Under the pieces are notes generated by a model. The model was given only the letters and a program-made list of their open reading frames with translations. It did no database searches and was not told the origin of the DNA. A program made the position numbers and the translations under genes. DNA of 64,000 nt from Candidatus Gastranaerophilales bacterium. Lineage in GTDB: Bacteria > Cyanobacteriota > Vampirovibrionia > Gastranaerophilales > Gastranaerophilaceae. The first letter of the stretch is position 1; every line of letters starts with the position of its first letter. The DNA is taken from contig CALUQN010000010.1 in the NCBI GenBank assembly GCA_944322945.1, positions 2,230-66,229 on the forward strand, written 5' to 3'. Positions 32,963-33,789 of this stretch are shown piece after piece.

Positions 32963-32990
32963 TTGACTGTGAAATTTTAGCAAATATAAT
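32963..32990 (+). promoter_or_regulatory. strong sigma70-type promoter reading into the tRNA-Phe repeat array
   Basis: TTGACT-N16-TATAAT. Confidence 0.55.
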
Positions 32991-33052
32991 TATATATGTG
33001 GCTTAAATCTGGTCACAGAGTGAAAATTCAATATTTATAAGCTAATAAATTT

Positions 33053-33235
33053 GCCGCAATAGCTCCCAGTGGAGTGAAACGGAACGGAGTTTAAATTATG
33101 TAGAGCTTGCTCTACCAACTCCGGAAACAAGTTAATAAAATATGCCGCAATAGCTCCCCAGTGGAGTGAAACGGAACGGAGTTCAAATTATGTAGAGCTT
33201 GCTCTACCAACTCCGCTGACAAGTTAATAAAATAT
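33053..33235 (+). repeat. two tandem ~91-bp units carrying tRNA-Phe 5' fragments
   Basis: Each unit starts with GCCGCAATAGCTC (tRNA-Phe nt 1-13). Each contains GCTCTACCAACT (reverse complement of the D-arm) and ends with AAGTTAATAAAATAT, in register with the intact tRNA. Confidence 0.8.
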
Positions 33236-33308
33236 GCCGCAATAGCTCAGTTGGTAGAGCAAGGGACTGAAAATCCCTGTGTCCTTGGTTCAATTCCGAG
33301 TTGCGGCA
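33236..33308 (+). tRNA. tRNA-Phe (GAA)
   Basis: 73-nt cloverleaf. Acceptor GCCGCAA/TTGCGGC, anticodon loop CTGAAAA, T-loop TTCAATT. CCA not encoded. Confidence 0.95.
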
Positions 33309-33376
33309 TATTTTTTTATAAAGTTGCTAGGCAGAGTGGCATATTTTTTAAAATCAAAATTCTTACGAATTTTGAA

Positions 33377-33457
33377 GTCCTTGGTTCACTCTCGCAAAAA
33401 ACAGACATTAAGTCAGTTTTTTGCTCGGCAGAGTGAGTTGCGGCATATTTTTTTATA
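33377..33457 (+). repeat. tRNA-Phe 3'-half fragment copy split by a hairpin
   Basis: GTCCTTGGTTCA (T-arm), then an AAAAAACAGAC...GTCAGTTTTTT hairpin, then GAGTTGCGGCATATTTTTTTATA, identical to the tRNA 3' end plus trailer. A shorter copy lies at 33324..33350. Confidence 0.6.
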
Positions 33458-33466
33458 TTTTATATT

Positions 33467-33491
33467 GTCATCCTGAACTTGTTTCAGGATC
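33467..33491. repeat. short palindromic repeat GTCATCCTGAACTTGTTTCAGGATC
   Basis: Perfect CCTGAA...TTCAGG hairpin in a noncoding tract. Confidence 0.4.
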
Positions 33492-33602
33492 TTACAGCCG
33501 TAAAGTCCGGCGTTGGTTTTCAACATTGCAAAATCCTGAACAGCTTGCAAATCTCATTTTTCAAAAAAAACGGATTAGCTACGCTTTCAATATGTGTGCA
33601 AA

Positions 33603-33688
33603 CGTTAGTCATTCTGAGCGTCAGCGAAGAATATCACTAAAAAATATTCTTCATCCATAAATGGTTATCGGGTTCAGAATGACGGTGA
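33603..33688. repeat. core of the GTCATTCTGAG palindromic element (copy E)
   Basis: GTCATTCTGAGCGTCAGCGAAGAATATC...GGGTTCAGAATGAC. Confidence 0.5.
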
Positions 33689-33789
33689 CAAAAAGACGTT
33701 AAGCCGCTAAGCGAGAAGGTTCAGCTGTATGAAGTGTACCCTAACATCCAGACTACAGTATTATTATTGAAATTTATTTTATCCTGCAG

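Follow-up and report, generated by a model that had tools for sequence, protein, structure and literature searches.

Repeats of 178 bp at the tyrT gene of Escherichia coli were reportedly described by Egan and Landy in 1978, and Elhai et al. are said to have described, in 2008, the 'small dispersed repeats' of heterocystous cyanobacteria. The scars left by integrases duplicate the 3' end of a tRNA gene and not its 5' end. In E. coli, 22 tRNA-linked repeats (TLRs) are known at ten loci. These non-coding units lie in the operons of tRNA or rRNA genes, a locus having 1-5 of them, and the last 18-19 nt of each match the 3' end of the adjoining tRNA or rRNA (PMC8144298). They are found behind terminators or between them, and a part in processing has been suggested for the repeated end; three of them (RrA/RrB/RrF) are small RNAs that undergo processing and bind Hfq and CsrA, while most are without a known function (PMC8144298).

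The locus compared with these systems here surrounds the tRNA-Phe(GAA) gene in a window of 64,000 nt (the whole stretch of DNA that was analysed) from Candidatus Gastranaerophilales bacterium, whose genome is 2.1 Mb in size with 38 % G+C. The gene lies on the + strand at 33236-33308 (ARAGORN and Rfam RF00005, 70.9 bits; ends by ARAGORN/Rfam at 33235/33236 to 33308/33309) and has no encoded CCA. An earlier note on this DNA had placed two units of ~91 bp directly upstream of the gene, at 33053-33143 and 33144-33235, each opening with nt 1-13 of the tRNA, and this was borne out by Tandem Repeats Finder (33039-33248, period 92 nt, 2.3 copies, 93 % matches) and by pairwise comparison of the two units, which are 95-96 % identical and differ at several positions. 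Downstream of the gene lie the remnant of one unit (33321-33353) and a second unit (33354-33457). The units at 33321-33457 resemble the E. coli TLRs in build, in that they sit downstream of a tRNA gene, are arranged in tandem and end in the 3' end of the gene. The number of copies, two upstream and ~2 downstream, also lies within the 1-5 found per locus in E. coli, and in relatives there are 0-6 upstream and 0-3 downstream. However, the two large units here are located 5' of the tRNA and open with its first 13 nt, an arrangement that has not been described for E. coli, and they carry an antisense copy of the D-arm. On the 3' side, the copied end is a 23-nt exact repeat comprising 11 nt of the tRNA and 12 nt of the trailer, in contrast to 18-19 nt of mature RNA, and a 12-nt copy of the T-arm is split by a dispersed hairpin module. 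No description of repeats at the tRNA genes of Melainabacteria or Gastranaerophilales was found in the literature, and none of a 5'-side mirror form; the unit family is apparently undescribed.

A sigma-70-type promoter, TTGACT-N16-TATAAT (32963-32990, + strand), which matches the consensus at 11 of 12 positions, precedes the units, as the earlier note had recognized, and is predicted to drive the tRNA-Phe transcription unit. The TTCTTGAC..TATAAT box is kept 3' of infC in relatives with units and without units alike. The promoter-proximal part of the leader (32997-33052, + strand) consists of a hairpin (GGCTTA...TAAGCT) followed by the original AU-rich copy of the tRNA leader; in the minimum free energy (MFE) fold of 33000-33322, positions 33000-33005 pair with 33038-33043, and a hairpin that begins with GTGGC is conserved at this position in relatives. 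On the other side of the gene, the trailer TATTTTTTTATA (33309-33320, + strand) is complementary to the leader over 18 nt (94 %), and together they lengthen the acceptor stem to ~18 bp. The trailer may be the U-tract of a terminator; a sequence scan called no terminator. A motif close to TTGAAAATTGAATAT, here at 33216-33235, is found ~5-25 nt 5' of many tRNA genes in the order, whether or not they have units, and pairs with a U-rich trailer to form an acceptor stem of ~18 bp.

Each upstream unit is made up of a copy of tRNA nt 1-13 (GCCGCAATAGCTC in both), a conserved head, a long hairpin (P3/P4) and an AU-rich linker that is a copy of the tRNA's own leader. Both are on the + strand, and the covariance model R1, described below, scores unit 1 (91 nt) at 96.4 bits (E 1.3e-21) and unit 2 (92 nt) at 100.2 bits (E 1.3e-22). 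In unit 2, the 5' piece occupies 33144-33156 and the head, CCCAGTGGAGTGAAACGGAAC, 33157-33177, P3 is formed by 33178-33183 with 33209-33214 and P4 (GTAGAGC/GCTCTAC) by 33192-33198 with 33201-33207, the antisense of tRNA nt 14-27 lies at 33199-33212, and the linker at 33216-33235. That the reverse complement of the D-arm lies within a GTAGAGC-TT-GCTCTAC hairpin had also been noted earlier and proved correct. GTAGAGC-TT-GCTCTACCAACT is present in both units, and TTGCTCTACCAACT matches the reverse complement of tRNA nt 14-27 exactly, within an inverted repeat of 15 nt that is 100 % complementary to the tRNA; the longest complementarity between unit and tRNA extends over 20 nt at 90 %. A genome-wide search found the unit at this single locus and nowhere else in the host genome. 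An assembly artefact, which the earlier note had named among the findings that would overturn its observation, is ruled out because the two copies differ and because the same unit is present in OZ006972.1 (a single-contig HiFi assembly), in CP017245.1 (a complete genome) and in >100 other assemblies.

Comparison of the locus across relatives, for which the earlier note had called, revealed the unit 5' of tRNA-Phe in many genera, with 0-3 copies per locus in a DNA search of 40 relatives. The covariance model R1, built from 66 distinct units, matched 117 of 401 sampled genomes of the order Gastranaerophilales, and 116 of these belong to the same family as the window. The matches extend over 28 of 64 genera, and between 1 and 6 copies stand in tandem. 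Among named assemblies of Gastranaerophilales or Melainabacteria, obtained from gut and rumen, 65 contain the exact 21-nt pattern GTAGAGCNTGCTCTACCAACT. Those R1 matches whose neighbouring tRNA was checked are immediately 5' of tRNA-Phe or tRNA-Thr(CGT), and where tRNA-Phe was within the retrieved stretch the end of the last unit is 43-48 nt from it in most loci (79 at most). Six second loci were retrieved, of which four precede tRNA-Thr(CGT), one is ended by a contig edge and one precedes tRNA-Phe in a genome that also has a five-copy array 5' of tRNA-Thr(CGT). Two loci from the first DNA search (G020 and G007) likewise precede tRNA-Thr(CGT), which has the same D-arm sequence as tRNA-Phe, and there the 5' piece of the unit equals nt 1-13 of that tRNA. 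The longest run of units seen 5' of tRNA-Thr(CGT), at G106:C2:10528-10988, contains five in tandem. In two other families of the order (L016 and L022), units of the same plan, namely 5' piece, hairpin and D-arm sense/antisense hairpin, are found at tRNA-Phe with a different middle part. Conservation of the antisense segment extends across the order and includes these units with a divergent middle. Many close relatives lack the leader unit, as does most of the order, and it is, thus, dispensable.

Four helices were read from the alignment of the 66 sequences. P1 joins the copy of the D-stem strand to GGAG, P2 is a hairpin of 2-3 bp with loops that are mostly GAA, GCA, GUGA, GUAA, GAGA or GAAA, P3 pairs GGAGUU with AACUCC, and P4 pairs GUAGAGC with GCUCUAC. 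Paired cells make up 91.6 %, versus 27-46 % when the partners are slid, a control that ignores the relatedness of the sequences. Covariation is strong in P2, where pair 31:38 is CG in 29, UA in 29 and AU in 2 sequences, and pair 30:39 is GC in 60 and AU in 2. The basal pair of P3 is GC in 43, AU in 7 and GU in 5, the P3 variants include GGAG/CUCC, GAAG/CUUC, AGAG/CUCU and GGAU/AUCC, and shifts in register keep the pairing. P4 is invariant, in part because of the way in which the sequences were collected. P1 shows no two-sided base change in the alignment, and P1 and P2 contend for two bases. When P3/P4 is read on the tRNA sense strand, G-U pairs are more frequent than A-C, and this together with the types of P2 loop favours an RNA of the tRNA sense strand. 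RNAalifold alone, run on a MAFFT alignment, recovered only P4 and detected no covariation; the weak alternative that it offered, acceptor nt 3-5 with GUG of the head, was not confirmed in the units of Thr or Met. For a single unit, the fold has z = -2.9. In the MFE structure of the precursor, the cloverleaf and the local P1 hairpins are kept and the tRNA stays apart from the units, the leader and trailer extend the acceptor stem to 18 bp, and the P3/P4 arms of unit 1 and unit 2 pair with each other. In Rfam searches at permissive and gathering thresholds, the tRNA alone passed and all other matches fell far below their gathering scores. With compensatory changes in P2 and at the P3 base, and with conservation that exceeds that of the flanking DNA, the leader unit has the properties expected of a structured RNA, as judged from comparative sequence analysis.

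Several more specific identities were considered and rejected. The GAAA that might recall a hammerhead or other self-cleaving ribozyme belongs to the loop of a hairpin that covaries, a CUGAUGA core is missing, and no Rfam match was obtained. A box C/D-like guide was suggested by the CUGA that follows the antisense segment here, but this is not conserved in relatives. A CsrA sponge was dismissed as, of the three GGA in each unit, two are in stems, and a related Met unit has none; in over a dozen aligned units, the single-stranded GGA reads GAA. The length of the unit is about that of leader plus tRNA, but a diverged copy of the whole tRNA would include a T-arm and an acceptor 3' strand, neither of which is present. 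Inspection by eye of a TTGAnAA box in the linker as an internal promoter revealed no -10 box at a workable distance.

The 45 nt of head before P4 are not derived from the tRNA and have a mean identity of 0.76 between species, compared with 0.53 for flanking DNA of equal length, 0.56 for the promoter-proximal leader and 0.52 for shuffled sequence. Identity of the head correlates with that of IF3, which is encoded by the adjacent gene infC (Spearman 0.58), no two distant hosts among the pairs compared have near-identical heads, and the Phe unit was not found in viral contigs. Taken together, these findings point to a unit that is inherited vertically and kept by purifying selection, not one that has spread recently. 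The 5' piece matches nt 1-13 of the local tRNA at 13/13 positions in 42 of 58 tRNA-proximal units and at 12/13 in eight more, following the tRNA through four acceptor variants (GCCGCAA, GCCGCGT, GCCACGT and GCCACCT). Decay is evident in some distal units, indicating that not every copy is under selection, and the tRNA-proximal copies are intact more often. Copy number also varies, with 0, 1, 2 and 3 copies in 20, 31, 20 and 4 loci, respectively, and in one genus, represented by 12 species, three sites are filled and nine are clean empty sites with a single leader.

On balance, we think it probable that the upstream units constitute a selected, structured and vertically inherited leader element that undergoes tandem turnover. 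Transcription from the conserved promoter near 32990 would produce a ~236-nt leader consisting of the 5' hairpin and two 92-nt modules, followed by the tRNA. In each module, the copied D-stem strand (nt 10-14) would close a small D-arm-like hairpin (P1), which would be followed by the tiny P2 hairpin with its GAA or GNRA-type loop, a conserved single-stranded CGGAAC, and the long P3/P4 hairpin in which the copied D-stem 3' strand GUAGAGC would pair with the antisense of tRNA nt 14-27. The copy of the acceptor strand (nt 1-7) has no robust local partner. As the D-arm-derived pieces (nt 10-14 and GUAGAGC) would be locked in local helices, the modules should leave the cloverleaf undisturbed. Because the linker is a copy of the tRNA's own leader, cleavage by RNase P at +1, probably together with RNase E-type cuts in the linker, would release RNAs of ~90 nt. 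Growth and shrinkage of the array, which has 0-6 copies depending on the species, would occur via unequal recombination or slippage at the ~30-nt 'leader plus nt 1-13' repeats; we infer that such events explain the changes in copy number, the losses and the tracking of the tRNA, since turnover would also maintain identity between the 5' piece and the resident tRNA.

The earlier note had offered a functional tRNA-fragment leader as one of its two options, and the location between a conserved promoter and the tRNA and the clear signs of selection uphold the leader part of that proposal; the processing decoy or regulatory RNA that it named would be possible roles. A released or leader-borne RNA could act as a small RNA, as a processing aid or as a folding aid, and a dispensable cis or small-RNA role appears most likely. 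E. coli offers a parallel in 3'ETS-leuZ, a small RNA from a tRNA spacer that is freed from a pre-tRNA by processing, as we propose might occur here, but the element at this locus differs in being repeated and matched to its tRNA.

The downstream units appear to be the 3'-side counterpart, combining a partial T-arm, a dispersed hairpin module and the 3' end and trailer of the tRNA. The second (33354-33457, + strand), recognized by repeat comparison and a search for the module, comprises a small hairpin (33355-33374), the 5' fragment of the T-arm GTCCTTGGTTCA (33377-33388), a copy of the module (33387-33435) and, at 33435-33457, the 3'-terminal 11 nt of the tRNA with 12 nt of trailer. The sequence GAGTTGCGGCATATTTTTTTATA, from the tRNA 3' end and its trailer, is thus repeated exactly at 33435-33457 and in a 70 % copy at 33331-33353, and a 47-nt hairpin separates the GTCCTTGGTTCA copy from the 3'-end copy, so that the earlier description of a repeated 3' end with trailer, a T-arm fragment at 33377-33388 and a shorter, nearer copy agrees with our repeat comparison. 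That nearer copy belongs to the remnant of the first downstream unit (33321-33353, + strand; repeats of 70 % and 93 %), in which the 3' end of the module, GGCAGAGTG, is followed by GCA and a copy of the trailer, and of which a full version is present in the sister genome G002 (L010). The second downstream unit is also found in G001, G002, G003, G016 (three in tandem) and G006 (two), and the number per locus in relatives ranges from 0 to 3, compared with ~2 here. At other tRNA genes, downstream units contain the terminator of the gene or sit past clear terminators, and those at tRNA-Phe lie past a likely terminator, a placement that a co-transcribed RNA would explain less well than duplication at the DNA level.

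In the 47-nt module, constant flanks (CCTCTC and YTCGGCAGAGTG) enclose a variable hairpin of 10-12 bp, the stem of which shows compensatory changes. About 30 copies are dispersed in the host genome, the one at 33387-33435 among them, and many are inside tRNA-linked units; in upstream copies the module is in minus orientation and replaces part of the D-loop region, and in downstream copies it is in plus orientation and replaces part of the T-loop region. It resembles the REP/BIME/REPIN elements and the dispersed repeats of cyanobacteria in being a dispersed, imperfect palindrome that is nested in other repeats and found in loop positions. However, it is conserved in its flanks and not in its stem, and the Phe leader unit is not dispersed. 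A REP/RAYT system was considered for the module and rejected, since neither of the two PF01797 genes of the host genome, which are intact and encode IS200/RAYT-like Y1 transposases (G000:C20:4420-4791 and C6:12642-12983, one of 178 aa), is flanked by it, and no copy was found within 5 kb of either. The genome's best tyrosine-recombinase match, probably Xer-type (G000:C14:43837-44583), ends ~150 bp from a copy of the module, which may be coincidence. A module match in a viral contig was rejected as a viral element because it is in host DNA beside tRNA-Leu at the end of the contig. This contig, L141 (IMGVR_UViG_3300045988_115344), is called viral, and its positions 60-311 contain a promoter, one module-bearing 5' unit and tRNA-Leu(UAG), the 3' side of which is probably abutted by a prophage.

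Across the host genome, units accompany 11 of the 42 tRNA genes, with 5' copies upstream in seven and 3' copies downstream in six, counted as copies of the first 11 nt of the tRNA and of its 3' end, respectively; the reverse controls gave 1 and 0. The ten other unit-bearing genes are at G000 C1:123623, C2:52300, C3:114706, C6:161/262/81085, C11:30938, C12:177, C17:48941 and C1:164112. Besides Phe, upstream units are found at Met, Leu-GAG, Leu-UAA, Thr-GGU, Ala-GGC and Pro-CGG, and downstream units at Met, Ser-GGA, Tyr, Leu-CAA and Ala-UGC, and at least three different inserted modules are represented among these genes. Different modules hold the same position at different tRNAs, and the tRNA-Pro and tRNA-Thr(GGU) units lack the antisense piece. 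Three points go beyond the earlier note, namely that about a quarter of the tRNA genes follow this pattern, that the leader unit is also used at tRNA-Thr(CGT) in relatives, and that the hairpin downstream of tRNA-Phe belongs to a dispersed module.

This genome-wide pattern and the dispersed module hint at a process at the DNA level, and the alternative that fares best is that the units are mobile or cassette DNA, i.e. small non-autonomous elements composed of a hairpin module and a rebuilt gene end that are inserted into tRNA genes by an enzyme encoded elsewhere. Insertion would be on the D-loop side (nt 11-13) or on the T-loop side, and the gene would stay intact because the element brings its own substitute for the leader and nt 1-13, or for the 3' end and trailer. 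The strictness of the rule at 11 tRNA genes, the constant flanks and variable stem of a module that is so often inside units, the interchange of modules at one position, the filled and empty sites among close relatives and the more frequent integrity of tRNA-proximal copies would all be accommodated, and the two Y1 transposase homologues and six tyrosine recombinases of the genome are potential sources of the enzyme. However, the Phe unit is confined to a single locus, its divergence follows a host gene with no sign of recent spread, and it is missing from viral contigs. Neither is an enzyme gene linked to the units, the Y1 genes being without a module nearby; repeats of 23-45 bp are unlike ordinary target-site duplications, and a circle of 92 bp is implausibly small for double-stranded recombination. 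We therefore regard insertion of cassettes as rather unlikely.

Less probable still, and rather doubtful in our view, is that the units are neutral by-products in which slippage or template switching duplicates the ends of highly transcribed tRNA genes and local complements keep the copies harmless, with no positive function. The pairing of the D-arm-derived pieces with a local complement, the dispensability of the elements, the decay of some distal copies, the diversity of modules and the likeness of the GTAGAGC-TT-GCTCTAC-type sense/antisense junctions to the products of fold-back copying would be in keeping with this origin. However, it would not explain why a head that is not derived from the tRNA is conserved well above flanking DNA (0.76 vs 0.53), why P2 covaries though it masks nothing, or why the element has been kept in >100 species when the direct repeats make its loss easy. 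A riboregulator, in which the D-arm antisense, masked in P3/P4, is freed conditionally and clamps nt 9-28 of the nascent tRNA, thereby controlling the folding or processing of tRNA-Phe, is very unlikely. The 15-20 nt of complementarity (20 nt at 90 %, 15 nt at 100 %) and the conservation of the antisense across the order despite the differing middle (L016 and L022) are in its favour, and the conserved head could act as a sensor, but the MFE structure of the full precursor holds the tRNA fold apart from the units, the antisense is required simply to pair with the sense copy, many relatives do without the element, and the units of tRNA-Pro and tRNA-Thr(GGU) have no antisense piece.

Scars of repeated integration and excision of phages or islands at tRNA-Phe, the other option of the earlier note, have next to nothing to recommend them even though tRNA genes are classical attachment sites, the 3' end plus trailer is directly repeated downstream and one relative's tRNA-Leu unit is at the end of a viral contig beside an inferred prophage, as integrase scars do not copy the 5' end, neither an integrase nor cargo is present, the 114 nt between the downstream repeats are the dispersed hairpin module, and the units are structured and selected across genera. 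Duplicated attachment sites and CIMEs do share with this locus a direct repeat of a tRNA-gene end that brackets inserted DNA and leaves the gene intact. However, the inserts here are of 58-114 nt, the 5'-end copies mirror the usual case, and the units are conserved and structured. A 3' repeat bracketing an integrase-bearing element was not found at tRNA-Phe; the neighbouring genes are dus, a TPR protein gene, infC, ruvA and dnaA, and none of the genome's six tyrosine-recombinase matches is on the window's contig, in line with the earlier statement that there is no integrase nearby. For the upstream units, conserved over genera under purifying selection, with compensatory changes and co-inheritance with infC, the scar reading is largely refuted.

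More speculatively, and against our own expectation, the gut Melainabacteria might have a general, undescribed system that adds small structured cassettes to both ends of tRNA genes. This would be either a new class of pre-tRNA leader and trailer RNA, with a constant scaffold and tRNA-matched sense and antisense parts, that acts on tRNA maturation or on tRNA-binding factors, or a new miniature mobile DNA that targets tRNA genes and rebuilds the gene end that it interrupts. Returning to the favoured reading of the upstream units as a selected leader element, if they are transcribed and processed, they would represent a new family of bacterial non-coding RNA that derives from the leaders of pre-tRNAs and has portions matching the tRNA that follows, and a 5'-side counterpart to the E. 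coli TLRs. The data from >100 species, which include covariation, changes in copy number, and filled and empty sites, are much richer than those available for the E. coli repeats, and this comparative set could help to explain how copies of tRNA-gene ends build up beside tRNA genes. In gut metagenome-assembled genomes, the units could be mistaken in annotation for pseudo-tRNAs, attachment sites or assembly errors.

The hairpin module is also nested in larger, unrelated intergenic repeats, one copy of which is without it (GTCGTCC-GTAC-GCAAATCCGC). Further dispersed short repeats, of the TGTCATCCTGAAC...TTCAGGATC and GTCATTCTGAGCG types, follow the downstream units at 33476-33560 and 33600-33690, and the intergenic regions of the host genome are mosaics of many such short modules.
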